A DNA stretch of 64,000 nucleotides from an uncultured bacterium (GTDB taxonomy: Bacteria > Actinomycetota > Actinomycetes > Mycobacteriales > CAJCIY01), in the NCBI GenBank assembly GCA_964245825.1, contig CAXTNT010000002.1, positions 223,728 through 287,727 of the forward strand. Reading direction: 5' to 3'. Below are positions 1,708 to 24,687 of this stretch, one piece after another (the first letter of the stretch is position 1; every line of letters starts with the position of its first letter). The translations under genes and the position numbers were made by a program. Below the pieces are notes generated by a model that was not told the origin of the DNA, made no database searches, and saw nothing but the letters and a program-made list of their open reading frames with translations.

Positions 1708-3171
1708 TCAGGGCAGGGTGATCGACCGGACGTCCGGGAGCACGATGGTCTCCTCGACGTCTCCCTGCCGGGTGGCCACGAAGAACGCCGCGTAGACGAG
1801 CGCCGAGATCAGGAAGCCCACCTCGAAGGCGAGGTCACCGAGGCCCGGGTGATGCCGCGCCACGAACCCGTGGAACTTCGTCTGGTTCGAGAACAGGGTG
1901 ATCGAGATCGCCATCCCGAGCGCCATCGCGACGACGCCGCCGACTGGGTTGTGCCGGCGGTCGAACGGCAGCCCCGAGACGTCCCGGCTCCGCCGCAGGA
2001 ACTGGTCGACCAGCACGACCCCGAGCCACGGCCCGATCCAGTACGCGATGACGAGCAGGAAGTTCTCGTACCGGCCCGGGTCGTTCAGGCTGGTCGCCGC
2101 GAGCACTGTCCCGACCGTGCCGAACGCGACCGCGGCGATCGCCCGGCGTAGCCCCAGCGACAGCGTGAGGCCAAGGGCGAGGAACGACATCGCACCGGAG
2201 TAGACGTTGAGCGCGTTGGCCGCGATGGCGCCGATCGCAATGGCGAGCAGAGTCAGGTCGCCGAGCCAGGTGGCCATCGGCTGGGTGAACAGCGTCGCCG
2301 GGTTGGTGCCGAACCAGCCGCCGATCGGCAGGCTCGGGATCGTCACCGCCGCGGCACCCACGATCTCCAACAGCAGGCAGGACACCAGCACACCGGACCC
2401 GGCGAACAGACCCGTCCGGAAACGGCTCGCCGAGGTCGGCAGATAGCGCGTGTAGTCGGTGGCGTACGGGTTCCAGCCGGCGGCGTAGCCGAACGTGGTG
2501 CCCACCGTGAGCAGGAAGCCGCCGGTGCCGCCATGCTGGTGCACCGAGGTCGGGTGCGCCTTGCTGAAGATCACGATGGCGGCCAGCACGAAGATCACCG
2601 TCAGGACGGGGACCGCGTACCGCTCGAAAGCCTGGATCAGGTTGTGCCCGATGAAGGCCACGAGCAGTTGCACGATCACGACGATGGCCAGCGCCAGCCC
2701 CTTGGCCATATGGGTGAGGCTGGCGAGGGCGAGGGCACCGCTGACGGAGTTCACCGCGAACCAGCCCGCGCCGGCGGTCACGGCGTTCAGCCCCGCCGGC
2801 AGGATGTTGCCGAGCCGGCCGAAGCCGGTCCGCGACAGGATCATCTGCGGCAGCCCGGACCTCGGCCCGCGCGAGGACAGCACGCCCATCGTGAGCGAGC
2901 CCAGCGCGGTGCCCACGACGATCGCCGCGACGGCCTGCAGGAAGGACTGGCCGAAGGCCGCGATCGCCAGCACGCCGACGAAGACCGTCGCGAACTCCAT
3001 GTTCGGCGAGATCCACGTCCACAGCAGGTCCAGCGGACGGCCGTGCCGCTCGTCGAGCGGCACCATCTCGGCGCCGCCGGGCTCGACGGCGAAGACCTTC
3101 CCGCCGTACGTGCCCTCGCGGATCTCGGCCGGGATGGCCTGCGGCTTGCTGCGGGCAGGGGCGGTGGTCAT
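1708..3171 (-). CDS. NCS1-family nucleobase:cation symporter (cytosine/purine permease, CodB-like)
   Basis: A 12-TM-like hydrophobic profile and conserved NCS1 blocks (GWNPYATDYTRY, SGAMSFLALGL). The start is assigned to the internal ATG (MTTAPARSKP...), giving a 487-aa protein. The upstream part of the 542-aa ORF is Arg/Pro-rich junk. Confidence 0.8.
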   Translation of the reverse strand: MTTAPARSKPQAIPAEIREGTYGGKVFAVEPGGAEMVPLDERHGRPLDLLWTWISPNMEFATVFVGVLAIAAFGQSFLQAVAAIVVGTALGSLTMGVLSSRGPRSGLPQMILSRTGFGRLGNILPAGLNAVTAGAGWFAVNSVSGALALASLTHMAKGLALAIVVIVQLLVAFIGHNLIQAFERYAVPVLTVIFVLAAIVIFSKAHPTSVHQHGGTGGFLLTVGTTFGYAAGWNPYATDYTRYLPTSASRFRTGLFAGSGVLVSCLLLEIVGAAAVTIPSLPIGGWFGTNPATLFTQPMATWLGDLTLLAIAIGAIAANALNVYSGAMSFLALGLTLSLGLRRAIAAVAFGTVGTVLAATSLNDPGRYENFLLVIAYWIGPWLGVVLVDQFLRRSRDVSGLPFDRRHNPVGGVVAMALGMAISITLFSNQTKFHGFVARHHPGLGDLAFEVGFLISALVYAAFFVATRQGDVEETIVLPDVRSITLP

Positions 3172-3293
3172 GCACGCTCCACGGGTGCGGGCCGGCCTCC
3201 GGATGGTCCCGGCTGGGCCGAACCGTAGGGGTTCCGTGTGACAACCGTGTTGCGCGCACTGAACCAGGCGGCCAGTGGGTACGGACGTCCTGC

Positions 3294-4004
3294 ATGAGCC
3301 ACTCCCCGCCCCGCGAGCCCGAGGCCACCTGGGCACTGACGCTGCCCGTCGCCGACGAGCCGAGGGCGGTGGTCCTGGTCCTGCACGGGGGCAGGGCGGT
3401 CAGCCACGACCGGTCGAGCGGGCGCCACCTGTCCGCGGCCCGGATGGTCCCGGCCGCGCATGCGCTGCGCCGCGGGACGACGGAGCTGGACGCGGAGGTA
3501 CGACTGCTGCGCTACCGCTACCGGGGCTGGAATCGCACCGAGGCCTCGCCCGTAACCGACGCCCACTGGGCGCTGGCCCAGCTGCGCGAGCAGCGGCCGG
3601 GCCTGCCCATCGTGCTGGTCGGGCACTCGATGGGGGGCCGGGCTGCCCTGCGGGTGGCCGGTGACCCCTCGGTCGTCGGCGTCGTGGCCCTCGCGCCCTG
3701 GTGCGACCGCGGCGACCCGGTGTCCCAGCTCGCCGGCCAGCGGGTGCGGATCCTGCACGGCACCCGGGACCGCTGGACCAGCCCGGCAGCCTCCCAGGCC
3801 TTCGCACACGCCGCGACCGCCGTCGGCGCCGACGTGCGCTGGGTCGCCATGGGCCCGGTCGGGCACTTCATGCTCCGCGGGTACGGCCGGTGGCAGGAGC
3901 TGACCTCGTACCTGGTGCTCGACGCGCTGCTGGCGGCCGGGGTGGACGGCACGCCACAATCGGTACCGCGGCGAACCGGTGCGGCGCGGGCGACGAACGA
4001 CTAA
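3294..4004 (+). CDS. Alpha/beta-hydrolase fold protein (esterase/lipase-like)
   Basis: Nucleophile-elbow motif GHSMGG in a 236-aa ORF with downstream Asp/His candidates (ILHGTRDRW, GHFM). The start is uncertain. Confidence 0.7.
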   Translation: MSHSPPREPEATWALTLPVADEPRAVVLVLHGGRAVSHDRSSGRHLSAARMVPAAHALRRGTTELDAEVRLLRYRYRGWNRTEASPVTDAHWALAQLREQRPGLPIVLVGHSMGGRAALRVAGDPSVVGVVALAPWCDRGDPVSQLAGQRVRILHGTRDRWTSPAASQAFAHAATAVGADVRWVAMGPVGHFMLRGYGRWQELTSYLVLDALLAAGVDGTPQSVPRRTGAARATND

Positions 4005-4036
4005 GCAAGACCTTCCCTGCCGGCGAGAGGACCACC

Positions 4037-5305
4037 GTGAGCACCGACCACCCGCGCCCCACGGTCGCCGTGGTGGGCTCGGGCGTCGCCGGTCTCACCG
4101 CCGCCTGGGCGCTGCACACCAGCCGCGACGTCACGCTCTACGAGGCCGACGACCGGCTCGGCGGCCACGCGCACACCCACGAGCGGACCGGTCCCAGCGG
4201 TCGCACCGTCGCGGTCGACACCGGGTTCATCGTGCACAACCGGCGCACGTACCCGACTCTGCTGCGGCTGTTCGCCGACCTCGGCGTCCAGACCCAGGAG
4301 TCGGAGATGTCGATGTCCGTGCGCTGCGACGGGTGTGGGCTGGAGTACGCCGGGGCCAGGCGGCTGCCGGGACTGTTCGCGCAGGGCGTGCGGTCGCTGC
4401 GACCGCGCTACCTGCGGATGCTGGTCGAGATCAAGCGGTTCCACCGGCAGGCCACCGCGCTGCTCGCGCGGGAGGGCGACGAGATGGAGCTCGGCGAATT
4501 CCTCGACCGGGGCGGCTACTCGCGCTACTTCCGCACCCACTTCATGGTGCCGGTCGTCGCGGCCGTCTGGTCGACCGCGCCGTCGCAGGCGTTGCGGTAC
4601 CCGGCCCGCTACCTGCTCTCGTTCCTGGACAACCACGGGATGCTGACCGTCACCGGGTCGCCAACCTGGCGCACGGTCGTCGGCGGCTCCGGTACGTATG
4701 TGGAGCGCGTCGCCAAGGAGCTCGCGGCGGTCCGCACGTCGGCGCCGGTGACCGCCGTCCGGCGCGGCCTCGACCACGTCGAGATCACCGCCGACGGGCG
4801 CAGCGAGTCCTACGACGCCGTGGTGATCGCGACCCACCCGCACCAGGCGCTCGCGCTGCTGGCAGACCCCACGGCGGCAGAGACCGAGCTGCTCGGCGCG
4901 ATCACGTACACGGTGAACGACACCGTGCTGCACGACGACACCTCGATCCTGCCGACCGCCCCCGGCGCGGCGGCGTCCTGGAACGTCCGGATCGCCGGCT
5001 GCGGCGCGGACGAGGACGCGGTGCTGGTCAGCTACGACATGAACCGGCTGCAGCGCCTCGACACCCCGGACCGGTACGTGGTGAGCCTCAACGCCGACGG
5101 CCGCATCGACGACGCGCGCGTGCTGGCGCGGATGACCTACGAGCACCCGCTCTACACGACCGCCTCGGTCGCGGCGCAGCGTCGGCTGCCCGAGATCACC
5201 ACCGGCCGGACCGCGTTCGCCGGCGCCTACCACGGCTGGGGCTTCCACGAGGACGGCGCCCTTTCGGGGCTACGCGCGGCCGAGTCGCTCGGGGCGACGT
5301 GGTGA
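4037..5305 (+). CDS. NAD(P)/FAD-dependent oxidoreductase (amine-oxidase-like Rossmann flavoprotein) of the cfa/DUF1365 cluster
   Basis: GTG start preceded by a gagagga RBS. It carries the dinucleotide-binding motif VAVVGSGVAGLTAAWAL...LYEADDRLGGHAHTHE and is 422 aa. The 5' part of the 534-aa ORF overlaps the hydrolase in another frame. Confidence 0.8.
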   Translation: MSTDHPRPTVAVVGSGVAGLTAAWALHTSRDVTLYEADDRLGGHAHTHERTGPSGRTVAVDTGFIVHNRRTYPTLLRLFADLGVQTQESEMSMSVRCDGCGLEYAGARRLPGLFAQGVRSLRPRYLRMLVEIKRFHRQATALLAREGDEMELGEFLDRGGYSRYFRTHFMVPVVAAVWSTAPSQALRYPARYLLSFLDNHGMLTVTGSPTWRTVVGGSGTYVERVAKELAAVRTSAPVTAVRRGLDHVEITADGRSESYDAVVIATHPHQALALLADPTAAETELLGAITYTVNDTVLHDDTSILPTAPGAAASWNVRIAGCGADEDAVLVSYDMNRLQRLDTPDRYVVSLNADGRIDDARVLARMTYEHPLYTTASVAAQRRLPEITTGRTAFAGAYHGWGFHEDGALSGLRAAESLGATW

Positions 5306-5346
5306 CCGCCGCCGCTGCCGAGCTACGGCGCGAGCCCGAGCTCTCG

Positions 5347-6078
5347 ATGCCGGTCGCGCCCCGCATCTACGACACGGTCGTGACGCACGTACGGTCGACG
5401 CCGCTGCGCAACGCCTTCTCGTACAAGAGTTCCTCCTGGCTGGTGGATCTGGACGCGCTCCCGGCGCTGCCGCGGCTCGCGCGTCCGTTCGCTCGGTTCG
5501 AGTCCCGCGACCACTTCGACGGCACCGCGCCCTCGATCCGGGCCGGCCTCGACCGGGTCCTCGCCGCCGAGGGCGTCGAGGATGTCGCGCACGTGGTGAT
5601 GCTCGCGAGCCCCCGGTCGCTGGGCTACGTCTTCAACCCGCTCTCGGTGTACTGGTGCCACCGCGCGGACGGCTCGCTCGCGGCCACCGTCGCCGAGGTG
5701 CACAACACCTACGGCGAGCGGCATGCGTACGTGGTGCACCCCGACGAGCGGGGCCGCGCCGACGTCCCCAAGGCCTTCTACGTCTCGCCGTTCAACGACA
5801 CGGCCGGCAGCTACACGATGAGCCTGCCCGAGCCGGGCGCGACGCTGACGCAGTCGGTGACGCTGCACCGCGACGGCGAGACCCCGTTCGTGGCCTCGGT
5901 CCGCGGCGTCGCGCACCCCGCCACCGTGGCGGGTCTGGTCCGCTCGGCCCTCCGCTGTCCCGGCGCCTCTTTCGGCGTCGCGCTCAAGATCCGCCTCCAA
6001 GGCGGTCGACTGTGGTTACGCCGGGTCTCGGTCGTTCCGCGGCCTCCCCGCCCAGATCAGGAAGGCGTCACCCGATGA
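5347..6078 (+). CDS. DUF1365-family protein
   Basis: MPVAPRIYDTVVTHVRSTPLRNAFSYKSSSWLVDLDAL is a typical DUF1365 N-terminus. It shares a 4-nt overlap (ATGA) with the next gene. A GTG at 5302 overlapping the upstream stop is an alternative start. Confidence 0.75.
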   Translation: MPVAPRIYDTVVTHVRSTPLRNAFSYKSSSWLVDLDALPALPRLARPFARFESRDHFDGTAPSIRAGLDRVLAAEGVEDVAHVVMLASPRSLGYVFNPLSVYWCHRADGSLAATVAEVHNTYGERHAYVVHPDERGRADVPKAFYVSPFNDTAGSYTMSLPEPGATLTQSVTLHRDGETPFVASVRGVAHPATVAGLVRSALRCPGASFGVALKIRLQGGRLWLRRVSVVPRPPRPDQEGVTR

Positions 6079-7355
6079 CCGCCACCATCTCTGCGCCCAC
6101 CTACCGCCACGCCGCGGTCGACCCGGCGCTGTGGCCGGACATCGCCCGGGTACCGCGCAAGCCGCTCCGCGCCACGATTGCCAAGGCCCTGCTGACGCGG
6201 GCGGCGGAGCGGCTCGCGCTGCGGTTCCAGTTGCCGGGTGGAGACCTCCGCGGCGGCGGCGACGCGTCGTCCCCGCTGATGATGGTGACCGATCCTGACG
6301 CGGTGTACGCGCGGCTGGGCAACAACGGTCTGGTCGGTTTCGGCGAGGCGTACATGGCCGGGGACTGGGACACCGACGACCTCGCCGGCCTGCTCACCGT
6401 CTTCGCCGGCAGTGTGGCCTCGCTGGTCCCGCCCCGCCTGCAGGGCTTCCGGCGGCTCGCGGTGCTGGCGCAGCCGGCCAGCGAGCGCAACACCACGCAC
6501 AACTCGCGCACCAACATCAGCCGGCACTACGACCTGTCCAACGACATGTTCGAGACGTTCCTCGACGAGACGATGACCTACTCCTCGGCACTGTTCGAGG
6601 CCGGCCCCGACGGCGCGCTGGTCGCTACCGAGGCCGAGCTCGCGGACGCCCAGCGACGCAAGGTCGACCGGTTGCTCGACGGAGTGGGCGTCGGCCCCGG
6701 GACCGAACTGCTGGAGATCGGCACCGGCTGGGGCGAGCTGTCGCTGCGCGCGGCCGAGCGGGGGGCGCGGGTCACCTCGCTCACGCTGTCGAGCGAGCAG
6801 CGCGCGCTGGCGCAGCAGCGCATCGCCGCCGCGGGCCTGTCCGACCGGGTGACCGTCGAGCTGCGCGACTACCGCGCCCAGCAGGGGCAATTCGACGCTG
6901 TGGTCTCCGTCGAGATGATCGAGGCCGTCGGCTACGACTACTGGCCGGTCTACTTCGCCACCCTCGACCGCCTGCTGCGTCCGGGCGGGAGGGTCGGGCT
7001 GCAGGCGATCACGATGCCGCACGAGCGGATGCTGGCCTCACGCAACACCTACACCTGGATCCACAAGTACATCTTCCCGGGCGGAATCATCCCCTCGACC
7101 ACCTCGATCGAGCACAACGTGCGGACCGACACCTCGCTGACGGTCACCGACGCGTTCGCGTTCGGGCCGAGCTACGCCGAGACGCTGCGGCTGTGGCGGG
7201 CGCGCTTCGACGGGCAGGCCGCGCAGGTCGAGGCGCTGGGGTTCGACGAGACCTTCCGCCGGATGTGGGCGTTCTACCTCGCCTACTCGGAGGCCGGCTT
7301 CCGCAGCGGCTACCTCGACGTCTACCAGTACGTGCTGACGAAGGCCGCGGCATGA
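6075..7355 (+). CDS. Cyclopropane-fatty-acyl-phospholipid-synthase-family SAM-dependent methyltransferase (paralog 1)
   Basis: CFAS-family blocks (HYDLSNDMFETFLDETMTYSSALF) and the SAM motif LLEIGTGWGELSL; 426 aa. The start and stop overlap both neighbours. Confidence 0.85.
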   Translation: MTATISAPTYRHAAVDPALWPDIARVPRKPLRATIAKALLTRAAERLALRFQLPGGDLRGGGDASSPLMMVTDPDAVYARLGNNGLVGFGEAYMAGDWDTDDLAGLLTVFAGSVASLVPPRLQGFRRLAVLAQPASERNTTHNSRTNISRHYDLSNDMFETFLDETMTYSSALFEAGPDGALVATEAELADAQRRKVDRLLDGVGVGPGTELLEIGTGWGELSLRAAERGARVTSLTLSSEQRALAQQRIAAAGLSDRVTVELRDYRAQQGQFDAVVSVEMIEAVGYDYWPVYFATLDRLLRPGGRVGLQAITMPHERMLASRNTYTWIHKYIFPGGIIPSTTSIEHNVRTDTSLTVTDAFAFGPSYAETLRLWRARFDGQAAQVEALGFDETFRRMWAFYLAYSEAGFRSGYLDVYQYVLTKAAA

Positions 7356-8659
7356 CCGTCCTGACCTCCGGCCGGCGCGGGGGCGCCGCGCAGCGCCTGG
7401 CTCCCCTGGTGGAGCCGCTCTTCGGTGGTGACCTGCCGATCCGGCTCACCGCGTGGGACGGCTCGTCCGTCGGCCCCGCGGACGGCCCGGCCGTGGTGAT
7501 CCGCTCGCGCCGCGCGCTGCGCCGGCTGCTCTGGCAGCCCGACGAGCTGGGCCTGGCCCAGGCGTACGTGACGGGCGAGCTCGACGTGGAGGGCGACCTG
7601 CTCGAGGGCCTCGCCCGGGTGTGGTCGGCGGCCCGGTCGCGCGGCCTGCACATCCAGCGGCCGCCCGTCCGGGAGCTGGCGAAGGCCGCGCTGACGGCGC
7701 TGTCGTTCGGCGCGGTCGGCCCGCGACCGAAGGCGCCCCGTACGCAGGCGAAGCTGGCCGGCCGGCTGCACTCGCTGCGGCGCGACCGGGCCGCGATCAG
7801 CCACCACTACGACCTGTCGAACGAGTTCTACGCGCTGATCCTCGACCCGCACATGGCGTACTCCTCGGCGTACTGGGTCGACCCCGAGGGCACGGTCGAG
7901 CAGGCGCAGGCGGCGAAGCTCGCGCTGGTCTGCCGCAAGCTCGACCTGCGGCCTGGCATGCGCCTGCTGGACGTCGGCTGCGGCTGGGGCTCGCTCTCGC
8001 TCTACGCCGCCGAGCACTTCGGCGCACGGGTCACCGGCGTGACGCTGTCGGCCGAGCAGAAGGCCTTCGTCGACGCCCGCATCGCCGAGCGGGGGCTGGC
8101 CGACCGAGTCGAGATCCGACTGCAGGACTACCGCGAGATCGACGACGGCCCGTACGACGCGGTCGCCTCGCTGGAGATGGGCGAGCACGTCGGCCAGGAG
8201 AACTACCCCACCTACGCCGGTCAGCTGCACCGGCTGGTGCGCGAGGAGGGGCGGGTGCTGATCCAGCAGATGTCGCGCGGCGACCGCTTCCCCGGCGGCG
8301 GCCCCTTCATCGAGTCCTACATCGCGCCGGACATGCACATGCGGCCGGTCGGCGAGACCGTCGCGTTCATCGAGCGCGCGGGGCTCGAGGTGCGCGACGT
8401 GCATGCGCTGCGCGAGCACTACGTCTGGACGGTACGGGCCTGGCTCGACACCTTCGAGGCCAACCTCGAGCAGGCGGTCGCTCTCGTCGGTGAGGAGGTG
8501 GCCCGGGTGTGGCGGCTCTACCTCGTCGGCGGGCTGCTGACCTTCCGCGAGGGGCGGATGGGCGTCGACCAGATCCTCGCCGTGAAGCCCTCGGCCGCCG
8601 GCACCAGCGGCATGCCCCCGGTCCGCTCGGACTGGCTGACCGACGGGTCCCCGGCGTAG
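7352..8659 (+). CDS. Cyclopropane-fatty-acyl-phospholipid-synthase-family SAM-dependent methyltransferase (paralog 2)
   Basis: HYDLSNEFYALILDPHMAYSSAYW and the SAM motif LLDVGCGWGSLSLYAA; 435 aa. ATGA overlap with paralog 1. Confidence 0.85.
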   Translation: MTVLTSGRRGGAAQRLAPLVEPLFGGDLPIRLTAWDGSSVGPADGPAVVIRSRRALRRLLWQPDELGLAQAYVTGELDVEGDLLEGLARVWSAARSRGLHIQRPPVRELAKAALTALSFGAVGPRPKAPRTQAKLAGRLHSLRRDRAAISHHYDLSNEFYALILDPHMAYSSAYWVDPEGTVEQAQAAKLALVCRKLDLRPGMRLLDVGCGWGSLSLYAAEHFGARVTGVTLSAEQKAFVDARIAERGLADRVEIRLQDYREIDDGPYDAVASLEMGEHVGQENYPTYAGQLHRLVREEGRVLIQQMSRGDRFPGGGPFIESYIAPDMHMRPVGETVAFIERAGLEVRDVHALREHYVWTVRAWLDTFEANLEQAVALVGEEVARVWRLYLVGGLLTFREGRMGVDQILAVKPSAAGTSGMPPVRSDWLTDGSPA

Positions 8660-8662
8660 GAC

Positions 8663-9496
8663 ATGTTCGCCACCGTGCCCTTCCTCGAGGCGCTCGGGTG
8701 GACGCTGCTCGCGTCCTTTCTGCTGCTGTCCGCCACCTTCGTGATCTCGCTGCTGCAGAAGCGCAACAGCGTCGTCGACGTCGCCTGGGGCCTGGCCTTC
8801 GTCGCCGTCGCCGTCGTCGCGACGGCGCTCTCGGCGGGTCACGGGGACGATGCGCGGCGCTTCCTGGTTCTGGGCATGGTGGTCGTCTGGGGCGGCCGGC
8901 TGGCCGCGTTCATCGGCTGGCGCAACCGCGGCAAGGGCGAGGATCCCCGGTACGCGGAGATGCTCGCCAAGGGTGGTGGGCACCCGATGGTGACGGCGTA
9001 CCTGAAGGTGTTCGCCCTGCAGTCGGTCATCGCCTGGTTCGTGGCGATGCCGGTGGTGGTCTCCGCGTTCAACCGTGGCGGGCTGACCTTCGTGGCATGG
9101 ATCGGGGTGGTGGTCTGGGCGGTCGGCGTCTTCTTCGAGGCGACGGGTGACCAGCAGCTGCTGCGGTTCAAGGCCGACCCGGCGCACAAGGGCAAGACCA
9201 TGGACCGGGGCCTCTGGCGCTACACCCGGCACCCGAACTACTTCGGGGACGCCTGCGTGTGGACCGGCATCTTCCTGGTCGCCGCCGAGCACCTGCCGGG
9301 GGTCGCGACGATCCTCTCGCCGGTGGCGATGGTGCTGCTGCTGACCAAGGGCAGCGGCAAGCCGATCACCGAGCGCAAGATGGCCACGGAGAAACCCGAC
9401 TTCGCCGATTACGTCGCACGGACCAGCGGCTTCTTCCCGCTGCCGCCGAAGAAGCACGTCACCGAAGCCGACCGCGAGGCCGTGCGGTCCGGGTGA
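8663..9496 (+). CDS. DUF1295-family membrane protein (steroid-5-alpha-reductase/ICMT-like fold)
   Basis: A multi-TM 277-aa ORF with the conserved C-terminal block RHPNYFGD typical of DUF1295/ICMT-like methyltransferase-reductase folds. Confidence 0.75.
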   Translation: MFATVPFLEALGWTLLASFLLLSATFVISLLQKRNSVVDVAWGLAFVAVAVVATALSAGHGDDARRFLVLGMVVVWGGRLAAFIGWRNRGKGEDPRYAEMLAKGGGHPMVTAYLKVFALQSVIAWFVAMPVVVSAFNRGGLTFVAWIGVVVWAVGVFFEATGDQQLLRFKADPAHKGKTMDRGLWRYTRHPNYFGDACVWTGIFLVAAEHLPGVATILSPVAMVLLLTKGSGKPITERKMATEKPDFADYVARTSGFFPLPPKKHVTEADREAVRSG

Positions 9497-10242
9497 CCGA
9501 CCTCGTCTACCGGGCGATGGTGCGGGTCGGCCTGCTGCTGTTCTGGGCGCTGCGGCTCGACATCCGCGGCGTCGACGACGAGCGCATCCCGGCCACCGGC
9601 GGCGCGGTGCTGGCGATCACCCACTTCGGGTATCTCGACTTCGCGATCACCGAACGCGTCGTGTGGGGCCGGCGGCGGCGCTATGTCCGCTTCCTGGCCA
9701 CCGACGCGTCCTTCCGGCACCCGATCTCCGGGCCGCTGATGCGCGGCATGCACCACGTGCCGGTCGACCGCTCGGCGGGCGCGGGCGCTTACGCGGAGGC
9801 GAGCGCGCGGCTGCGCGCCGGCGAGATCATCGGCGTGTTCCCCGAGGCGCAGGTCAACCGGGCGTGGGTCGTCGGCGAGTGCAAGACCGGTGCGGTCCGG
9901 CTGGCGGCCGAGGCGGGCGTACCGCTGATCCCGGTCGCCGTCTGGGGCGGGCACCGGGTGCTGACCCGCGGCCATCCGATGCGACTGCGCGACCGGCGCG
10001 GCATCGCGGTACGGGTGCATGTGGGCGCGCCGATGTCCACGCGCAGGCACCAGGTGGTCGCGCAGACCGAGGCGCTCCGGGCCCGGCTGCAGGGCCTGGT
10101 CGAGACGGCGCAGCAGAGCTATCCGCAGAGCGCCGCGGGCGAGCCGTGGTGGCAGCCTGCCGCGCTCGGCGGCAGCGCGCCGACGCCGGCGGAGGCCGCC
10201 GGCCTCGACGCCGCCGACGACGCGGCCACCCTGGCATCCTGA
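9493..10242 (+). CDS. 1-acyl-sn-glycerol-3-phosphate acyltransferase family (PlsC-like lysophospholipid acyltransferase)
   Basis: A GTG start overlapping the upstream stop. It has acyltransferase motif I H-x4-D (ITHFGYLDF), the FPEAQ block (FPEG-like) and VPLIPVAV (motif IV). Confidence 0.8.
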   Translation: MTDLVYRAMVRVGLLLFWALRLDIRGVDDERIPATGGAVLAITHFGYLDFAITERVVWGRRRRYVRFLATDASFRHPISGPLMRGMHHVPVDRSAGAGAYAEASARLRAGEIIGVFPEAQVNRAWVVGECKTGAVRLAAEAGVPLIPVAVWGGHRVLTRGHPMRLRDRRGIAVRVHVGAPMSTRRHQVVAQTEALRARLQGLVETAQQSYPQSAAGEPWWQPAALGGSAPTPAEAAGLDAADDAATLAS

Positions 10243-10274
10243 TCGCACTGCACGACCCGAGGAGAGGACCACCC

Positions 10275-10733
10275 ATGAAGGCCGGCGACATCGCCCCCGA
10301 CTTCACCCTGCCCGACGAGGACGGCACCCCCCGCACGCTGTCCACCCTGCTGGCCGACGGCCCGGTCGTGCTGTTCTTCTTCCCGTACGCGATGACCAGC
10401 GGCTGCACCCGCGAGAGCTGCCACTTCCGCGACCTGGCGAGCGAGTACGCGCAGGCCGGCGCGCAGCGGGTCGGCATCAGCATGGACTCGGTGGCCAAGC
10501 AGAAGGAGTTCTCCGACAAGCATTCCTTCGACTACCCGCTGCTGTCGGACGAGGCCGGCGAGGTGGCGACGGCGTTCGGGGTCAAGCGCGGCGTCCTGCT
10601 CAAGAAGCTGACGCCGGTGAAGCGGGCCACCTTCGTGATCGGTACGGACCGGACGATCCTCGAGGTGATCTCGAGCGAGATGAAGTTCGAGATGCACGCC
10701 GACGAGGCGCTGAAGGTGCTCGCCAAGGCCTGA
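10275..10733 (+). CDS. bcp: Peroxiredoxin, Bcp-type thiol peroxidase (AhpC/TSA family)
   Basis: RBS ggagagga precedes the ATG. The 152-aa ORF has the peroxidatic/resolving Cys arrangement FFFPYAMTSGCTRESC (Bcp C-x4-C). Confidence 0.85.
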   Translation: MKAGDIAPDFTLPDEDGTPRTLSTLLADGPVVLFFFPYAMTSGCTRESCHFRDLASEYAQAGAQRVGISMDSVAKQKEFSDKHSFDYPLLSDEAGEVATAFGVKRGVLLKKLTPVKRATFVIGTDRTILEVISSEMKFEMHADEALKVLAKA

Positions 10734-10788
10734 GGCGCTGGTTTCTCGGCGCCGGAAGACGCTCGCGAGCGGCTGGCGCCGGAGCTGC

Positions 10789-11232
10789 TCAGTTGATCAG
10801 GAAGGCCGGGAAGTCGGGTGCGGCGGCGCGGAGGGCCTCGTCGGTGGAGTCGGCCTTCAGGCCGGGGAAGAACTGCCCGACCTCGAAGCCCCAGCGGCGC
10901 AGGTACTCCCGCAGCACCGGTGGCTTGGCGTCGTCGGTGAGTTCGACGACGGTGATCGCCTCGGTACGCCGGCCCAGGCGCAGCTCGCCGCCGCCGGCCG
11001 CCCGGATGTTGCGTACCCACTGGGTCTGACCGCGGGGGGCGACGAGGTGGCGCCGGCCGTCGAGGCTGAGCACGTTGACGGGGGTGCTGCGCCACTCGCC
11101 GGTGCTGCGGCCGCGTACCCGCAGCTCCCGAGAGCCCACGAGGCTGATGCCGAGCCGGGCAAGCCCGCGGACGAGCGGGTTGAGGACGCGGCGGGTGAAG
11201 GGGTCCGGGGCGCGGTATCGGGGTTCGTCCAT
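10789..11232 (-). CDS. Nitroreductase-family deazaflavin (F420)-dependent oxidoreductase-like protein (DUF385)
   Basis: 147 aa with the conserved layout of the actinobacterial Ddn/DUF385 family (RRVLNPLVRGLARLG...TTGRRSGEWRSTPV...HLVAPRGQTQWVRNIRA). Confidence 0.7.
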   Translation of the reverse strand: MDEPRYRAPDPFTRRVLNPLVRGLARLGISLVGSRELRVRGRSTGEWRSTPVNVLSLDGRRHLVAPRGQTQWVRNIRAAGGGELRLGRRTEAITVVELTDDAKPPVLREYLRRWGFEVGQFFPGLKADSTDEALRAAAPDFPAFLIN

Positions 11233-11397
11233 GTGCTCTCCTCGTTTCTCGGCGGCGACCGCCGGCGCTTCCGGGCATCATCTGCTGTCGGCCTGGGGAT
11301 GCCAAGACGTCTGGCGTGGCTAGGTTGGGGAGGGCGCGCGGCGTCGGGCGCGAGGCGCTCGCCCCTGCCCTGCGTACCTGGGACACTCGCCGGTGCC

Positions 11398-11470
11398 GGG
11401 CCGTTAGCTCAACTGGCAGAGCAGCGGACTTTTAATCCGCGGGTTCTGGGTTCGACCCCCAGGCGGCCCA
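11398..11470 (+). tRNA. tRNA-Lys (anticodon UUU)
   Basis: GGGCCGTTAGCTCAACTGGCAGAGCAGCGGACTTTTAATCCGCGGGTTCTGGGTTCGACCCCCAGGCGGCCCA. It has a 7-bp acceptor stem (with one G-U pair), a D-loop, an anticodon loop cTTTTaa and a T-arm GGTTCGA. CCA is not fully encoded. Confidence 0.9.
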
Positions 11471-11496
11471 CCTACCGAAGGCCCACCTACCGAAGG
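11467..11496. repeat. 15-nt perfect tandem direct repeat (cccacctaccgaagg x2) overlapping the tRNA-Lys 3' end; att-core-like duplication
   Basis: Read directly; the first copy contains the last nucleotides of the tRNA acceptor stem. Confidence 0.8.
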
Positions 11497-11858
11497 TCAA
11501 CAGGCCCACTCTTACTGTGCGGGTACACCTGCCGCTTGACTGTGCTTCGGCTCATGCTTGACGCCTGATTCGGCCGTTCGTCGACACCCAGGGAGACCAG
11601 CGTGGCTGAGCAGAGGCATTGCTTCTGCTGCACCGTCGTCGACGCCAGCCAGTGACGTCCCCTGTGGTGGTCTAGCTCCTCGGGTCTCACGGAGTTGGTG
11701 ACCACGTGCGCTGTGGCCAGCGTGTGATGGTCAGCGAGACCACGCCAATGGTTCTCGCGGAAGGACACAGAGAGACCAGTGACGCCGTGTCCCATGCAGG
11801 CGTCTCCTTGTTATTGGCATCATGTGAGACCGAGCTGTCTACCGTCAGCAGTCGGCAA

Positions 11859-12566
11859 CTAAGGATCCTGTTCTCTATCCCGTGTTGCATGTCTTGCCGC
11901 TGCGTCAAGAAGGGTTTGTCTGATCTGAGCCCGACGAAGGTTCTCGGCGCTGTCACCCTCAACTGACGTTGATAGCCCTTGTGTTTGAAACGGGCCACCC
12001 TCGACGATCATCTCACGGTGGGGTGCAGGTTCGAGGCTGGCGTCGTACTTGCCCCGTTCGCTCTCCAGTCTCAGCACGATTATGTCTTTGACGGGTGCGG
12101 GCCAGACCTGAAAGAGGTACCTCTCAATGATGGGGTCGGGCGGCATCATCTGGTCGTCCTCGTTCTCGTACTCCTCAGTCATCACGACGCCGTCGTAATT
12201 TGCGTCTCGACCCCGAGCATGGACGCGGATGCGGTACGTACCGGGCCCGGCGGGACTCAGAACCGGGAACTCGTCGTCAACGTCCATGCCAAGCGCAGCG
12301 AAGCCGAGATCACCGGACGGTACCTCGATGCTCGCCTCGACGATGTCTTCCCAATCACCAGCATCTAGATCGGTCGGCGCGCTGGCGAGCACGTGCACAT
12401 CGACCCCGACAGGGCCAGCTGCTATGCCCGTGTTTATGTAGAGCGAGTGGGGAGAGACCCCGACTAACCCGTTGCCCGAAGTATCAGCCCAGGGAAAGGG
12501 AGCTTCCATGACGTCCCCGATGTAGAACTGGTGGTAGTCAACCGGAACTGTGCCCATGGGTTCCAT
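11859..12566 (-). CDS. Hypothetical acidic protein encoded in the lower-GC islet
   Basis: A 235-aa ORF, strongly acidic (D/E-rich), with non-repetitive protein-like composition. It lies in DNA of visibly lower GC than its surroundings. No recognisable family. Confidence 0.5.
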   Translation of the reverse strand: MEPMGTVPVDYHQFYIGDVMEAPFPWADTSGNGLVGVSPHSLYINTGIAAGPVGVDVHVLASAPTDLDAGDWEDIVEASIEVPSGDLGFAALGMDVDDEFPVLSPAGPGTYRIRVHARGRDANYDGVVMTEEYENEDDQMMPPDPIIERYLFQVWPAPVKDIIVLRLESERGKYDASLEPAPHREMIVEGGPFQTQGLSTSVEGDSAENLRRAQIRQTLLDAAARHATRDREQDP

Positions 12567-12829
12567 GTCACTCCCGCTCCCAGAGGGTGCTGCGGCTCCG
12601 CTGAGGCGCCGTTCGAGCTAACGTACCGCCATGAAAGCGCGCTTGGGAGTGCTCTTCGTCGAACCTGCCGGCGCTCTGGGCGGCATTCGGCGCGCCGTTC
12701 GGCGACGACCGGGAGGCGCTCGCGGCCGCGTTCAGATCCCGCTACGCCGAGGTACACGAAGCCAGCGTCGGGGAGTGGTTCACGGCGCACGACGTTCCAA
12801 AACGCGTCTGGTCACGCGTCGAAGACTGA

Positions 12830-13175
12830 GTGACCTCCCAGATTCCGACGGCGTCCTCGTCGACGGTGCGACCTACGGGCAGCAGGCAGCGGCGGCGGGC
12901 GAACGCGGACCGGAACGCTGGTTGTCGGTGAGGGTCTCCAGTCGGGCGTTGATCAGCCGACTGCCGATCGAGGGGTCTTTCGCCCAGGACGGGACCAGTC
13001 CCCACCGCAACGCCACCAGTTTCCGCTGCCCGTGGCGGTCGACCGCGGCGGGCACTGGCTTGGTCGGGGCCACGTTGTAGTCCGGCTCGGCCAGCGCCTC
13101 CCCGGTCTCGTCGCTCGCCCCCAGCAGCACGGCCAGGTCGGAGGTGGACCGGGCCGAGGCGTACCTGCCGCACAT
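12830..13175 (-). pseudogene. SOS-response-associated peptidase (SRAP/YedK/HMCES, DUF159) pseudogene, frameshifted and truncated
   Basis: The N-terminus MCGRYA... carries the catalytic Cys2, followed by ...WGLVPSWAKD...LINARLET, then a premature stop. The next conserved SRAP block (KPAFRSAFARRRCLLP) continues in a different reading frame. Similarity is lost after about 115 aa of an expected ~230. Confidence 0.75.
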
Positions 13176-13332
13176 GACCGGAGCGTAGAACGGACGGTCA
13201 CGGCACGCCGCCGCCGCCGTGACAGGTCAACCGTGCTCACCGCGGCTGGGTTGCCCCGAATGGGCTACAGACCGCGCAGTGCGGGCCCGAAAGACTCGGT
13301 CGCACTTTCGGGTGACCGCGGAGGAGACCGAC

Positions 13333-13731
13333 GTGAGAGCAGCACTTGGCTTCGCCCTGGCCGGGGTCAGCATCGCCGGTCTGACGCTTACCGCGAATGC
13401 CGCGGTCGCGGCCCCGACGAAGAACCCGCCGGCTCATCCGATCGCGAACACACAACAGACCTTCGATCAGTACTACCGTGATGGGTCCGGCTACACCGAA
13501 GAAGTCGTGTTCACGGGCAACACGTGGTCACTGCCCGGTTATGCCGACGAGGGCACGTTCACCAACAAGGGCGAGTCGCTCACGATGAAGACCACGTCGG
13601 CCCACGACCGGGGCTGCACCTACAAGGGCACCTACGTCGCCAGCACAACCCTCTACACAGGCAAGTTGAAGTGCCCCAACAGCGGAGCGAAGGGCACCTT
13701 CACGGTGACGACGACAGGGCAGAGCGGCTGA
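13333..13731 (+). CDS. Small secreted hypothetical protein
   Basis: A GTG start after a ggagga RBS, then a signal-peptide-like N-terminus (AALGFALAGVSIAGLTLTANAAVAAP) and a Thr/Gly-rich mature part with 2 Cys. GC is lower than in the flanking DNA. Confidence 0.5.
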   Translation: MRAALGFALAGVSIAGLTLTANAAVAAPTKNPPAHPIANTQQTFDQYYRDGSGYTEEVVFTGNTWSLPGYADEGTFTNKGESLTMKTTSAHDRGCTYKGTYVASTTLYTGKLKCPNSGAKGTFTVTTTGQSG

Positions 13732-13811
13732 CACGGTCCCGACCGCGCTGGCCGAGGTCTCCCAGCAGCGCCGCATCATCAGCACCCGGCGCGCAGCGCC
13801 GTACCTGACAG

Positions 13812-15107
13812 TCAGGCCGGTTCCGGTGGTCTCGCTGTCAGCGCGCCTTCGAGCATGCGGGCGGCGACTCTCGGCAGGAAGCCATTGCGTTCCTCGGCGG
13901 GGCAGGCGGCGAGCGCGCGACGCGCCTGTTCGACGTCTCGAACCTGGAGCTCGACCATGGCACGCACCGCGCACCGGTTGGCCAGTAGCTGGCCGGACAG
14001 GGTGTGATCCGCTGCGGCGAGTATGGCGCGGGCCTCGAGGGGGCGGTCTCCGAACATCAACGCCACCGCGCGCGCCGTACCCGTACGGTCGGCGTCCGGG
14101 GCAACCCGCTGCGCGAGTGCGGCCCATCGGCCGACGCGCGCCACGTCCAGTTCGGCGACGCTGGGGTGCGCGGGGGTGATCACCTCTCGGATGATCACGA
14201 TTGTCCACAGCTCCACCACCGCGCAGGCCAGCGCGGCCGTGGTCTGCGCGGTCTGGCCGCTCGTGGCCGCGCGCTCCAGGTTCGTGTCGGCCCGTTCGAG
14301 GATGAAGCGGGCGTCGGGCGCCGGCCCATGCGCCAGCAGCGTGAGCAGTCTGCCGGCAGCCGCCGCAGCCACCTCCGGCCGTCCGTCAGTCAGCGCCGTC
14401 CGGAGCACGTCGCGATTGGTGCTCCGGGTCAGCTCGATGACGGCTCGTCGGCTGTTCTCGAGGTTCCGCTGCGCAGTCGGGTGGAAGAGCCACCGGCCGA
14501 TCGTCAGACCGTCGCTGGCGAGTGCGCCATCCTGAACAGGGATCAGGTTCATGAACACGAGCCACGCGCCGGTGACACCCGCGCCCAGCAGCAGGCAGCG
14601 GACACCGACCGACGGGCTCCGCGCAGCGAACCACCACGCCACCGCGGTGAGCACGGCGTTCGCCGCCGGACCGCCGCCCGCGAACACGATGCGAAGCGGT
14701 CGTTCCAGGACGCGCGCCTCGCCCCACTGCGCCTGGACATGATTTCTGCTGGCGATAGGCGGGAGCCCGCCTCGACGCCAGACATACACCCCCAGGACGC
14801 GGACGGCCACCACCCGCAGTCGCAGGGACAGCGCGGCCAGCAGATGGCCTCCCTCGTGTGCCGGGATGTTCACGAGGGTCCCGACGATCAGGCCGACGTA
14901 GGCACAGGTGACGCCGACGAATCCGCCGATGGCGCCGGCCCAGACGAGAGTCAGCACGACCGCGACGAGGGCCAGGGCCAGGTGTCCCAGCCGAAGACCG
15001 CTCCTGTCCGCCCCGGTCGAGACCACGGCACAGGGTGTCAGCGCACCGGCCGCCCCACAAGGGTCAGGCTGGGTGGTACGCACTGTCGGTGAGGCACGGG
15101 ATCTCAT
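13812..15107 (-). CDS. Site-2-protease-like (peptidase M50 family) membrane metalloprotease with a C-terminal soluble helical-repeat extension
   Basis: HExxH inside a TM segment (NIPAHEGGHLLAA) and a second TM motif NLIPVQDGALASDG (the LDG-like ligand region). About 200 C-terminal residues form an Ala/Leu-rich helical domain. The start is uncertain. Confidence 0.6.
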   Translation of the reverse strand: MRSRASPTVRTTQPDPCGAAGALTPCAVVSTGADRSGLRLGHLALALVAVVLTLVWAGAIGGFVGVTCAYVGLIVGTLVNIPAHEGGHLLAALSLRLRVVAVRVLGVYVWRRGGLPPIASRNHVQAQWGEARVLERPLRIVFAGGGPAANAVLTAVAWWFAARSPSVGVRCLLLGAGVTGAWLVFMNLIPVQDGALASDGLTIGRWLFHPTAQRNLENSRRAVIELTRSTNRDVLRTALTDGRPEVAAAAAGRLLTLLAHGPAPDARFILERADTNLERAATSGQTAQTTAALACAVVELWTIVIIREVITPAHPSVAELDVARVGRWAALAQRVAPDADRTGTARAVALMFGDRPLEARAILAAADHTLSGQLLANRCAVRAMVELQVRDVEQARRALAACPAEERNGFLPRVAARMLEGALTARPPEPA

Positions 15108-17591: not shown

Positions 17592-17700
17592 CACGCGGGT
17601 CACCTCGGCGCAGACATGCCAGCCAGAATGCACGAGGGACCGGCTTCCGTAGCGATGCGCTCGCTTACTGACCGCATGATCGTTCGGTTACCGTCGGCCG

Positions 17701-18498: not shown

Positions 18499-18525
18499 TC
18501 TGCTTCAGACGCGAAGGAGCGTGGC

Positions 18526-19485: not shown

Positions 19486-19522
19486 GTGCGCACGCCGCGA
19501 AGGCGCAGGGGGCGGGCCGGTG
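19447..19522. repeat. 38-bp imperfect tandem duplication spanning the paaA stop and paaB start
   Basis: agtgcgcacgccgcgaagacgcagggggcgagacgatg / agtgcgcacgccgcgaaggcgcagggggcgggccggtg. Copy 1 ends at the paaA TGA and copy 2 ends in the paaB GTG. Confidence 0.85.
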
Positions 19523-24569: not shown

Positions 24570-24687
24570 CTCGTTCGCAGGGAAAAGCGATGTCTACCAT
24601 CGCGACGTGGCAGCGGAAAGGTCCGGCAGCGTCGCCGACGTCCAGGCCACCGCACCCCGATGGCCAGCGGGACCGGACCTCCTGGCG

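Follow-up and report, generated by a model that had tools for sequence, protein, structure and literature searches.

A tightly packed actinobacterial operon matching the bacterial methylated/furan fatty acid gene set

A row of six genes in the 64-kb stretch of DNA analysed here (the window) encodes an amine-oxidase-like FAD protein, a DUF1365 protein, two CFAS-family SAM methyltransferases (CFAS1 and CFAS2), a DUF1295 membrane protein and a PlsC-type acyltransferase. The question that the locus raises is which product such a combination makes, since its members recall both furan and tuberculostearic acid synthesis. The row (4037–10242) proves to be a genuine operon with tight packing, and its content corresponds to the known bacterial methylated/furan fatty acid gene set.

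Operon anatomy and upstream region

Genes were called from a GC3 frame plot and inspection of start codons, and the six genes have a GC3 of 0.91–0.97 in the called frames (Table 1). Deposited gene calls on the same contig give identical lengths of 258, 426, 435 and 277 aa (P0001, P0242, P0241 and P0121), and Pfam confirms each of the six domain assignments made in the preliminary description. The junctions read, in order, GTGA, ATGA, ATGA, a 3-nt spacer (TAG GAC ATG) and GTGA, so that four of the five are 4-bp stop/start overlaps; the coupling by overlapping codons claimed for the whole row holds for these and not between CFAS2 and DUF1295. Use of an alternative DUF1365 start (ATG 5347 rather than GTG 5302) would turn the FAD/DUF1365 junction into a 41-nt gap.

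Table 1 Features of the locus and its upstream region
Feature	Position	Strand	Evidence
Upstream intergenic region, candidate promoter, not SigK-type	3225–3293	+	Footprint common with L001
Alpha/beta-fold serine hydrolase	3294–4004	+	Pfam Hydrolase_4, Abhydrolase_6, Abhydrolase_1; GHSMG nucleophile elbow (GxSxG)
FAD protein, amine-oxidase/phytoene-desaturase-like, UfaD-like	4037–5305	+	Pfam Amino_oxidase 97 bits, NAD_binding_8
DUF1365 protein, UfaO-like	5302–6078	+	Pfam DUF1365 223 bits
CFAS1, CFAS-family SAM methyltransferase, UfaM-type	6075–7355	+	Pfam CMAS 286 bits
CFAS2, CFAS-family SAM methyltransferase, BfaB sister clade	7352–8659	+	Pfam CMAS 281 bits
DUF1295 membrane protein	8663–9496	+	Pfam DUF1295 249 bits, Steroid_dh 3e-8, PEMT 1e-4, ICMT 3e-4
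PlsC/LPLAT-type acyltransferase	9493–10242	+	Pfam Acyltransferase 89 bits; HX4D motif (HFGYLD)
AhpC/TSA (Bcp-type) thiol peroxidase	10275–10733	+	Pfam AhpC-TSA 117 bits, Redoxin 83 bits
Convergent gene downstream of Bcp	10789–11217	-	Follows Bcp on the opposite strand

The transcription unit probably comprises eight genes (3294–10733), two of which lay outside the extent first proposed. The hydrolase gene ends 33 nt before the FAD gene, which is preceded by an RBS-like GAGAGGA, and 32 nt with an RBS-like GAGGAGAGGA separate PlsC from Bcp. Of the related actinobacterial loci, 71 have complete flanks, and in 21 of these a hydrolase orthologue directly adjoins the cluster; the hydrolase gene probably opens the operon and its product is a candidate (lyso)phospholipase. 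Bcp, the probable last gene, has orthologues downstream of the cluster in four relatives (L001, L041, L058 and L075). The PlsC protein matches NCBIfam AGP_acyltrn at 62 bits, under the cut-off, and its GTGA overlap with DUF1295 indicates translational coupling. The PlsC coupling, earlier read as a sign of dedicated lipid assembly, is real at this locus but lineage-specific, as PlsC is fused to the cluster here and in L001 only (1/71 relatives).

The alignment of the window with its closest relative, L001, reveals a shared footprint that ends 9 nt before ATG 3294 and contains TGAACC (3260–3265) followed by GGGTACGGA; the motif occurs once within the 64-kb window. No match to a sigma-70 consensus was found in the region upstream of the hydrolase. 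In the relatives, a SigK-type motif, C[AC]ATCC-N16-CGAA[TC], lies upstream of the cluster in 51/78 loci and also upstream of the sigma gene in 21/38 hits, and sigK-rskA adjoins the cluster in about 28/80 loci, along with fasciclin and photolyase genes. Neither this motif nor a sigK/rskA pair was found in the 64-kb window, and the SigK-type promoter is lost at this locus; ECF-sigma regulation, as first proposed, therefore fits the relatives but not the window. The missing promoter and sigma/anti-sigma pair, which tie the relatives to a stress regulon, count against the furan-type reading proposed below.

FAD protein, DUF1365 protein and CFAS1

The first three genes of the row share their families and order with ufaD-ufaO-ufaM of Rhodopseudomonas palustris (RPA2571-2569) and Halomonas sp. 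YLGW01, which upholds the likeness to the Rhodobacter ufa genes noted at the outset; in Cereibacter (Rhodobacter) sphaeroides these are RSP1091-1090 and the unlinked RSP2144. The ufa furan fatty acid genes were reportedly described by Lemke et al. in 2020 and Choi et al. in 2025. UfaD is an FAD/NAD-binding desaturase and UfaO a DUF1365 protein (PMC7380195). The FAD and DUF1365 genes are kept in 71/71 related loci and CFAS1 in 70/71, so the arrangement is not due to chance.

The FAD protein shows similarity to the HpnE and CrtI families (NCBIfam, all matches under cut-off), and its top PDB match is LkcE (146 bits). It is 43–46% identical to a flavoprotein that adjoins DUF1365 and ChrR-sigmaE on alpha-proteobacterial plasmids, and the DUF1365 protein is 34–38% identical to its counterparts near ChrR-sigmaE on such plasmids.

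CFAS1 is closest to the functionally tested UfaM of Halomonas (44.5% identity and 278 bits, the identity resting on a UfaM sequence stitched from OCR-damaged DNA); its scores against E. coli Cfa and BfaB are lower, at 172 and 149 bits. CFAS1 and UfaM form one clade with 94% bootstrap and carry the same signature at the bicarbonate positions (S-E-Q-I-Y), with Ser in place of Cys139 and Gln in place of His266 in both. In Halomonas, ufaD-ufaO-ufaM are consecutive, and its UfaM expressed in E. coli yields 11-methyl-octadec-12-enoate (PMC12089945). CFAS1 is thus best regarded as a putative UfaM-type methyltransferase, with a cis-monounsaturated phospholipid acyl chain as its predicted substrate.

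We infer, with reasonable though far from full confidence, that the locus is an actinobacterial counterpart of ufaD-ufaO-ufaM and modifies unsaturated acyl chains esterified in membrane phospholipids. In a SAM-dependent step, CFAS1 would produce a methyl-branched trans-olefin from a cis-monoenoic chain, the FAD protein would desaturate this to a conjugated methyl-diene, and the DUF1365 beta-barrel protein would close the methylated furan ring with O2, giving a sacrificial antioxidant lipid. DUF1295 would probably reduce a C=C bond in one product of the cluster, and the hydrolase, PlsC and Bcp, attached in this lineage, could together remove, re-acylate and detoxify oxidised chains. A point against this pathway is that cis-monoenoic acyl chains are scarce in many actinomycetes. 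The literature yielded no description of furan fatty acids made with UfaO by an actinobacterium, the sole actinobacterial furan fatty acid report, from Agrococcus, concerning a non-methylated C12 compound and a genome without a UfaO homologue (PMC9323897). Moreover, the in-operon CFAS-like RSP1089 of R. sphaeroides is dispensable for furan fatty acids, as are RSP1088 and RSP1087 (PMC7380195), so operon position is no proof of function.

CFAS2, DUF1295 and alternative products

CFAS2 is 37–41% identical to five verified BfaB proteins over its full length, including the N-terminal domain (245–283 bits), and scores lower against UfaM (169 bits) and E. coli Cfa (165 bits); it forms the sister clade of BfaB with 94% bootstrap. 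This placement makes methylene or methyl-branch chemistry possible. In its active site, CFAS2 nevertheless carries a change like that of UfaM, Gln in place of His266. By analogy, CFAS2 most likely would add a second methyl group (compare FufM) or make a separate methyl or methylene branch; either second C-methylation or methylenation is a candidate role. The DUF1295 protein (predicted model with pLDDT 92.2) is structurally most similar in Foldseek to delta14-sterol reductase 4quv and PbSRD5A 7c83 (probability 1.0, TM about 0.5), followed by Ma-ICMT, and UsgR, a DUF1295-like fungal protein, is an ene-reductase (PMC8597850). The modelled fold points to NAD(P)H-dependent reduction of C=C bonds as the probable function, a methyltransferase role being a possible alternative.

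These two proteins are central to the least unlikely alternative, in which saturated fatty acids with a mid-chain methyl branch (tuberculostearic-type) would be made by a route independent of BfaA, which might also run as a side branch beside the furan pathway. Here CFAS2, and perhaps CFAS1, would methylenate an oleoyl chain, and DUF1295 would replace BfaA in reducing the exomethylene group. The BfaB sister placement, the sterol/steroid-reductase-like fold with its ene-reductase relative, and the adjacency of CFAS2 and DUF1295 across the 3-nt spacer are consistent with this route, as is M. tuberculosis UfaA1, reported to yield 10-methylstearate in crude extracts with NADPH (summarised in PMC5660069). 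Against it, the bfa genes have been described as different from ufaA1 (PMC7791843). CFAS2 (46/71 loci) and DUF1295 (53/71) vary independently and are not an obligate pair: DUF1295 occurs in 0/14 and CFAS2 in 7/14 Micrococcaceae loci, against 29/29 and 15/29 in Streptomycetales. The route would also give no function to the FAD and DUF1365 genes, which are linked in every related locus.

The comparison with the 10-methylstearic (tuberculostearic) acid operon bfaA-bfaB (tmsA-tmsB), reportedly the work of Machida in 2017 and Blitzblau in 2021, bears on the same point. Both operons have 4-bp overlaps, both contain methyltransferases of the sister clades (about 40% identical from end to end), and the predicted role of the locus, SAM-dependent modification of a phospholipid-bound monoene, is the same. 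However, no homologue of the FAD_binding_4 reductase BfaA was found in the window. The bfa genes are adjacent, whereas here DUF1365 lies between the methyltransferases and a flavoprotein of another fold family. Cys139, His266 and Ile268 are kept in 5/5 BfaB references, whereas the equivalents of the last two are Gln and Met in 46/46 CFAS2 orthologues; Cys139 is Ser in both window paralogs and retained in 26/46 CFAS2 orthologues. The FAD protein, which belongs to the Amino_oxidase/phytoene-desaturase-like family and has no detectable similarity to BfaA (E > 1), is unrelated to this reductase. The tuberculostearic logic originally drawn from the flavoprotein and methyltransferases is therefore an analogy only, of which the relationship of CFAS2 to BfaB survives.

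The public annotation implies that both paralogs are ordinary cyclopropane fatty acid synthases, with accessory genes beside them, which is very improbable. Both paralogs have a full-length CMAS domain, cyclopropane synthases as top PDB matches and public names of the 'cyclopropane-fatty-acyl-phospholipid synthase family protein' kind, and share with E. coli Cfa (PDB 6BQC) a two-domain architecture, the SAM-binding motif (xxDxGCGWG / LEIGTGWG) and the Glu239 and Tyr317 equivalents. They are only 32–37% identical to it, miss the NCBIfam equivalog cut-offs widely (251 versus 600, 238 versus 400 and 309 versus 650) and, on the point raised in the preliminary description, both fall outside the group of cyclopropane synthases from E. 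coli, Aquifex and Lactobacillus. The essential bicarbonate ligand His266, kept by three cyclopropane synthases and the five BfaB proteins, is Gln in 72/72 CFAS1 and 46/46 CFAS2 sequences, and the product of the enzyme nearest to CFAS1 is a methyl-branched olefin, not a cyclopropane. Just as improbable is a set of tailoring genes for a non-lipid substrate or a secondary metabolite (for example, an LkcE-like amine oxidase with C-methyltransferases acting on a polyketide or isoprenoid), since the neighbourhood contains no PKS, NRPS or terpene synthase genes, characterised homologues work on phospholipid acyl chains, and the core recurs in very different actinobacterial genera and, beside ChrR-sigmaE, in Proteobacteria, a distribution that fits a housekeeping or stress function and not a strain-specific metabolite.

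Relation to known ufa systems

In M. tuberculosis, Rv0449c-Rv0446c lies beside sigK-rskA and codes for a flavoprotein of the amine-oxidase-like kind, a DUF1365 protein, UfaA1 of the CFAS family and a membrane protein resembling DUF1295; presumably UfaA1 is its only methyltransferase, and PlsC is not known to be present. The related loci show this sigK-rskA linkage, together with a conserved SigK-type promoter, whereas the linkage is lost in the window. The relatives' association with ECF sigma/anti-sigma, fasciclin and photolyase genes resembles the proteobacterial singlet-oxygen regulon, although their pair is SigK-RskA (ECF18/19-type) and not RpoE-ChrR; the window itself contains no ECF promoter and no sigma factor of this kind. 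The Chlamydomonas singlet-oxygen regulon includes CFA1, CFA2, DUF1365, DUF1295, DUF2177 and a fasciclin-like protein (PMC4067076).

Compared with the ufa systems, the favoured furan-type reading places the genes in an actinobacterial host, inserts a tandem second methyltransferase from the BfaB sister clade, and couples DUF1295, PlsC, an alpha/beta hydrolase and Bcp to the core. The locus would thus represent a variant of the known ufa set, a furan-type cluster in an actinobacterium with an extra methyltransferase and lipid-handling genes.

Organization of the operon and its ufa-type core

The locus is a ufa-like operon, a known type of system and not a new kind. The G+C content of the window is approximately 72%, so that raw lists of open reading frames are full of spurious frames; genes were called from a GC3 frame plot with a GC3/GC2 filter and inspection of start codons, and the derived protein lengths match exactly those of public gene calls of the same contig (records P0001, P0242, P0241 and P0121). 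Mycobacteriales MAGs, Sporichthya, Embleya and Streptomyces are the nearest named relatives.

Features of the window and conservation of the operon genes (loci with complete flanks, n = 71, among the 80 closest actinobacterial loci listed)
Feature	Position	Strand	Family, motif or content	Loci
Pirin	270-1253
Cytosine/purine-type permease	1708-3336	-
Alpha/beta hydrolase	3294-4004	+	GHSMG nucleophile elbow	21/71
FAD protein	4037-5305	+	Amino_oxidase + NAD_binding_8	71/71
DUF1365 protein	5302-6078	+	Pfam PF07103	71/71
CFAS1	6075-7355	+	CFAS-family methyltransferase	70/71
CFAS2	7352-8659	+	CFAS-family methyltransferase	46/71
DUF1295 protein	8663-9496	+	Pfam DUF1295	53/71
PlsC	9493-10242	+	Acyltransferase PF01553	1/71 (L001, closest relative)
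AhpC/TSA (Bcp) peroxiredoxin	10275-10733	+		3/71
Convergent gene after Bcp	10789-11217
tRNA-Lys(TTT)	11398-11472
Putative element remnant	11398-15100		Lower G+C after the tRNA
Truncated SRAP-domain ORF	12873-13175	-
Phenylacetate catabolism genes	17695-19882		Enoyl-CoA hydratase, paaA, paaB
Subtilase	23274-24578	-
TPR-CHAT protein	24421-27243	+	940 aa
ECF-like sigma factor	27738-28367	-	Region 2

The preliminary description had joined six genes, from the FAD protein to PlsC, by overlapping stop and start codons, and its domain names all agree with Pfam. Four of the five junctions overlap (GTGA, ATGA, ATGA and GTGA), among them the 4-bp overlap of the FAD protein and DUF1365 genes, and the fourth junction is a 3-nt spacer. 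The hydrolase gene ends 33 nt before the start of the FAD protein gene, upstream of which lies an RBS-like GAGAGGA, and the Bcp gene begins 32 nt after the end of the PlsC gene, its start preceded by GAGGAGAGGA; the transcription unit therefore probably comprises eight genes instead of six. A terminator scan returned four terminator-like matches, every one inside coding sequence. A pirin gene and a permease gene lie upstream, and the layout from pirin to hydrolase is kept in L001, the contig of the closest relative.

The furan fatty acid pathway of Proteobacteria supplies the closest functional precedent (Lemke et al. 2020, PMC7380195). In it, chains bound in phospholipids are modified in three steps: the SAM-dependent CFAS-family methylase UfaM makes 11-methyl-12-trans-18:1 from cis-vaccenate, the FAD/NAD-binding UfaD, kin of the phytoene desaturases, forms a 10,12-diene, and the DUF1365 protein UfaO is responsible for O2-dependent formation of the furan fatty acid 9M5-FuFA. 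In R. palustris, formation of 9M5-FuFA requires RPA2571-2570-2569 (ufaD-ufaO-ufaM), and these three genes suffice for it (PMC7380195). The three genes are also consecutive in Halomonas, whose UfaM yields 11-methyl-octadec-12-enoate when expressed in E. coli (Choi et al. 2025, PMC12089945).

The first three of the six genes named in the preliminary description correspond one by one to ufaD-ufaO-ufaM in protein family and gene order. The FAD protein combines Amino_oxidase and NAD_binding_8 matches with similarity to the HpnE and CrtI families, as expected of a UfaD-type protein, and its closest solved structure is LkcE. The DUF1365 protein matches PF07103, the family of UfaO (PMC7380195), with 223 bits over profile positions 1-234 of 235; a PDB sequence search with it gave no match. 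On alpha-proteobacterial plasmids (Rhizobium, Azospirillum and Qingshengfaniella), flavoproteins with 43-46% identity to the FAD protein precede DUF1365 proteins with 34-38% identity to that of the window, and these pairs adjoin ChrR-sigmaE, fasciclin, DUF2177, DUF1295 and SDR genes. CFAS1 is closer to the tested Halomonas UfaM than to Cfa in score, tree clade and Ser/Gln signature. The resemblance to the ufa (methylated/furan fatty acid) operon noted at the outset is thus upheld by families, gene order and the phylogeny of CFAS1 and UfaM, and from the same three lines we infer by homology that the core would catalyse methylation, desaturation and O2-dependent furan closure. Caution against over-reading the locus is nonetheless warranted, because RSP1087-1089 of R. 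sphaeroides are dispensable (PMC7380195), no actinobacterial product of such a cluster is known, and a search with the CFAS1 and CFAS2 alignment returned homologues with generic public names only, which linked neither paralog to UfaA1.

Two divergent methyltransferases

CFAS1 and CFAS2 share 34% identity. Reference sequences of E. coli Cfa, BfaB (six) and BfaA (several) were taken from the Blitzblau 2021 supplement, and a Halomonas UfaM protein had to be stitched across frameshifts because the ufaM DNA in its source (Choi 2025 supplement) was OCR-damaged. CFAS1 is most similar to this stitched UfaM reference (44.5% over 371 aa, 278 bits), ahead of E. coli Cfa (32%, 172 bits) and BfaB (31%, 149 bits). 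CFAS2 shows 37-41% identity to five BfaB references (245-283 bits), the best being T. curvata BfaB (41% end to end, 283 bits), as against 35.5% (169 bits) for the stitched UfaM reference and 37%, over the catalytic domain only, for E. coli Cfa (165 bits).

A Kimura-corrected neighbour-joining tree (379 columns, 100 bootstraps; not a maximum-likelihood tree) places the CFAS1 orthologues and Halomonas UfaM in one clade with 94% bootstrap support. The CFAS2 orthologues (99%) are sister to the BfaB clade (100%) and lie outside it, with 94% support for the joint node, and the cyclopropane synthases of E. coli, Aquifex and Lactobacillus group with neither paralog. All scores of CFAS1 and CFAS2 at the NCBIfam equivalog level are far below the cut-offs. 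Placement and scores therefore dispose of the possibility, raised with the preliminary description, that both methyltransferases cluster with true cyclopropane synthases, at least by neighbour-joining.

Residues Cys139, Glu239, His266, Ile268 and Tyr317 bind bicarbonate and matter for cyclopropanation in the E. coli and mycobacterial enzymes. These E. coli positions, the five highlighted in the Blitzblau 2021 supplement (PMC7791843), were mapped onto 127 aligned sequences. Three cyclopropane synthases and five BfaB proteins read C-E-H-I-Y, 72 CFAS1 sequences S/A-E-Q-I-Y and 46 CFAS2 sequences C/S-E-Q-M-Y, so that the His266 equivalent is Gln in both window paralogs and in 118 of 118 orthologues. 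The stitched Halomonas UfaM reference has the same Ser and Gln (motifs MYSSAIF, SVEMIEAVG and LQAIT). By bicarbonate set, equivalog scores and tree group, neither CFAS1 nor CFAS2 belongs to the cyclopropane synthases. The Gln is common to the olefin-forming UfaM and both window paralogs, and the His-to-Gln exchange is thus a simple shared marker, which we predict to identify those members of the CFAS family that form no cyclopropanes. For these genes, the public label 'cyclopropane-fatty-acyl-phospholipid synthase' is predicted to be misleading.

The combination of an FAD oxidoreductase with a CFAS-family enzyme had also been read as the logic of tuberculostearic acid synthesis, a reading that fails at its flavoprotein. 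BfaA (Rv3719) is an FAD_binding_4 protein (PF01565), whereas the FAD protein of the window belongs to the Amino_oxidase family and has no similarity to it (E > 1); no BfaA-like sequence occurs in the 64-kb window, and bfaA and bfaB are adjacent in a real bfaAB locus (Tsukamurella, L087), unlike the arrangement in the window. The shared flavoprotein-plus-CFAS logic is so a matter of analogy, not homology. The bfa genes are, moreover, distinct from ufaA1 (Blitzblau et al., PMC7791843). What is left of the tuberculostearic reading is BfaB as the nearest relative of CFAS2 by sequence, and CFAS2 itself falls outside the BfaB proteins in both clade and signature (C/S-E-Q-M-Y versus the C-E-H-I-Y of five BfaB).

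FufM (RPA0924), the methylase of 9M5-FuFA, has 26% identity to UfaM (PMC7380195). By analogy with FufM, CFAS2 may attach a further methyl group, or it may introduce a separate branch on the chain. A plasmid search with CFAS2 gave no close homologue (>45% identity) outside Actinobacteria as a FufM stand-in. On a plasmid of Rhizobium sp. CIAT894 (L083), positions 2331-7780 carry sigma-ChrR-DUF1295-CFAS(345 aa)-hypothetical-DUF2177-DUF2147-DUF1365. The short CFAS protein, with 28-30% identity to CFAS1 and CFAS2 and a 4-bp gene overlap with DUF1295, is a third methyltransferase type paired with DUF1295, and might be FufM-like.

Distribution and regulation of the cluster

In a scan of species-representative genomes, the 80 closest actinobacterial loci were listed and the 71 with complete flanks were counted; carriers include Streptomyces, Rhodococcus, Arthrobacter and Nocardioides. 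The counts identify the tandem methyltransferases as a common, uncharacterised variant, and the PlsC fusion is specific to the window lineage. CFAS2 and DUF1295 vary independently across taxa: among the loci listed, CFAS2 is found in 7 of 14 from Micrococcaceae and 15 of 29 from Streptomycetales, and DUF1295 in 0 of 14 and 29 of 29, respectively. An obligate methylenase/reductase pair of CFAS2 and DUF1295 was downgraded for this reason.

L001 (CAJCIY010000067.1), a 16.5-kb contig labelled 'Candidatus Melainabacteria', is collinear with the window from pirin to Bcp at 70-90% protein identity and is most likely mis-binned or mislabelled. The R. erythropolis plasmid plas2 (L082, NZ_CP050126.1), 31 kb long and classed as a plasmid in its record, carries the whole hydrolase-FAD-DUF1365-CFAS1-CFAS2-DUF1295 cluster at 6095-12138; its CFAS2 orthologue (~10057-11329) aligns in two pieces and lacks an annotated CDS, which may reflect a pseudogene with a frameshift or a fault in the assembly.

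Among relatives, the commonest flanking families are an ECF sigma factor together with an RskA-type anti-sigma factor (approximately 28 of the 80 closest loci listed), photolyase (approximately 20 of the loci listed) and a fasciclin (MPT70/83-like) protein (15). In an unbiased count of bipartite motifs, 51 of 78 loci listed had C[AC]ATCC-N15-17-CGAA[TC] ahead of their first cluster gene (shuffled-control maximum, 7). The ECF sigma gene is likewise preceded by this motif in 21 of 38 hits, compared with a background rate of 0.027 per 300 nt. Its presence before both the cluster and the sigma gene is the pattern of an autoregulated ECF regulon. The motif, a consensus derived de novo from these loci, is probably a SigK-type promoter that would place the cluster in the SigK regulon across genera; Veyrier et al. 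2020 (PMC7509140) describe high conservation of SigK sites throughout Actinobacteria.

Control by an ECF sigma factor, noted in the preliminary description for the ufa operon, thus holds for the relatives and does not extend to the window. The proteobacterial ufa genes are controlled by an RpoE-ChrR pair, whereas the 64-kb window has no RskA, ChrR or SigK homologue and no C[AC]ATCC-N16-CGAA[TC], even with one mismatch. A footprint common to the window and L001, including TGAACC and GGGTACGGA, lies within 70 nt upstream of the hydrolase gene, and a sigma-70 promoter scan gave no match. Operon control appears, from these sequences, to have been rewired in the window lineage. The ECF-like sigma factor of the window was rejected as the operon regulator: it matches in region 2 only, has CHAT/TPR and subtilase neighbours and shares no promoter motif with the operon. 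The grouped subtilase, TPR-CHAT and sigma genes appear unrelated to the lipid operon.

Elsewhere in the window, the tRNA-Lys gene, the sole match of an Rfam scan, is followed by approximately 3.7 kb of lower G+C (0.60-0.70 versus approximately 0.72) with ORFs that have no Pfam matches and a truncated SRAP-domain ORF; this stretch resembles what is left of an element that had integrated at the tRNA. Phenylacetate catabolism genes begin at 17.7 kb.

Accessory proteins and a putative furan lipid system

The predicted structure of the DUF1295 protein (pLDDT 92.2) is closest in Foldseek to a delta14-sterol reductase and to steroid 5-alpha-reductases from bacteria and humans, with ICMT ranking lower (4quv, 7c83, 7bw1 and 4a2n); a PDB sequence search gave no match. 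Among its Pfam families (DUF1295, Steroid_dh, PEMT and ICMT), Steroid_dh ranks above PEMT and ICMT, and a C-terminal RHPNYFGD, an RHPxY-type motif for a cofactor that may be NADPH or SAM, is invariant in 37 aligned sequences. We take this motif to be nearer the RHxNYxGD of sterol reductases than the ICMT motif. A fungal DUF1295-like protein is a proven ene-reductase (PMC8597850). The protein may be a methyltransferase; the ranking of folds and families, the motif and the fungal enzyme together favour a C=C reductase, which would reduce a double bond.

PlsC matches PF01553 with 89 bits, has the HX4D motif HFGYLD at residues 44-49 and scores below the cut-off of TIGR00530. Together, hydrolase, PlsC and Bcp could remove, re-acylate and detoxify oxidised chains. 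The roles of this trio, of CFAS2 and of DUF1295 are put forward as hypotheses only.

Furan fatty acids act as potent scavengers of radicals and singlet oxygen, and to our knowledge the bacterial pathway has been proven in a few Proteobacteria only. The window and 71 related loci show that Actinobacteria also carry the three-gene ufa core; two thirds of these loci have an additional methyltransferase, distinct from cyclopropane synthases, BfaB and UfaM alike. We predict that, under stress that induces SigK, Actinobacteria synthesise acyl chains of methylated olefinic or furan type. A wider reading, which we consider rather unlikely, is that the operon is a self-contained actinobacterial system in which a sacrificial antioxidant lipid of the membrane is both made and repaired. 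Its UfaM/UfaD/UfaO-type core would build a furan fatty acid; CFAS2 and DUF1295 would convert it, or a pathway intermediate, to a lipid not yet described, such as a dimethyl-furan fatty acid or, independently of BfaA, a reduced chain with a methyl branch; and hydrolase, PlsC and Bcp would then cut out spent chains, replace them and detoxify them. In most relatives this core lies behind a probable SigK-type promoter, and if the wider reading is right, it would also name what the SigK-RskA regulon shared by mycobacteria produces biochemically, long an unknown.
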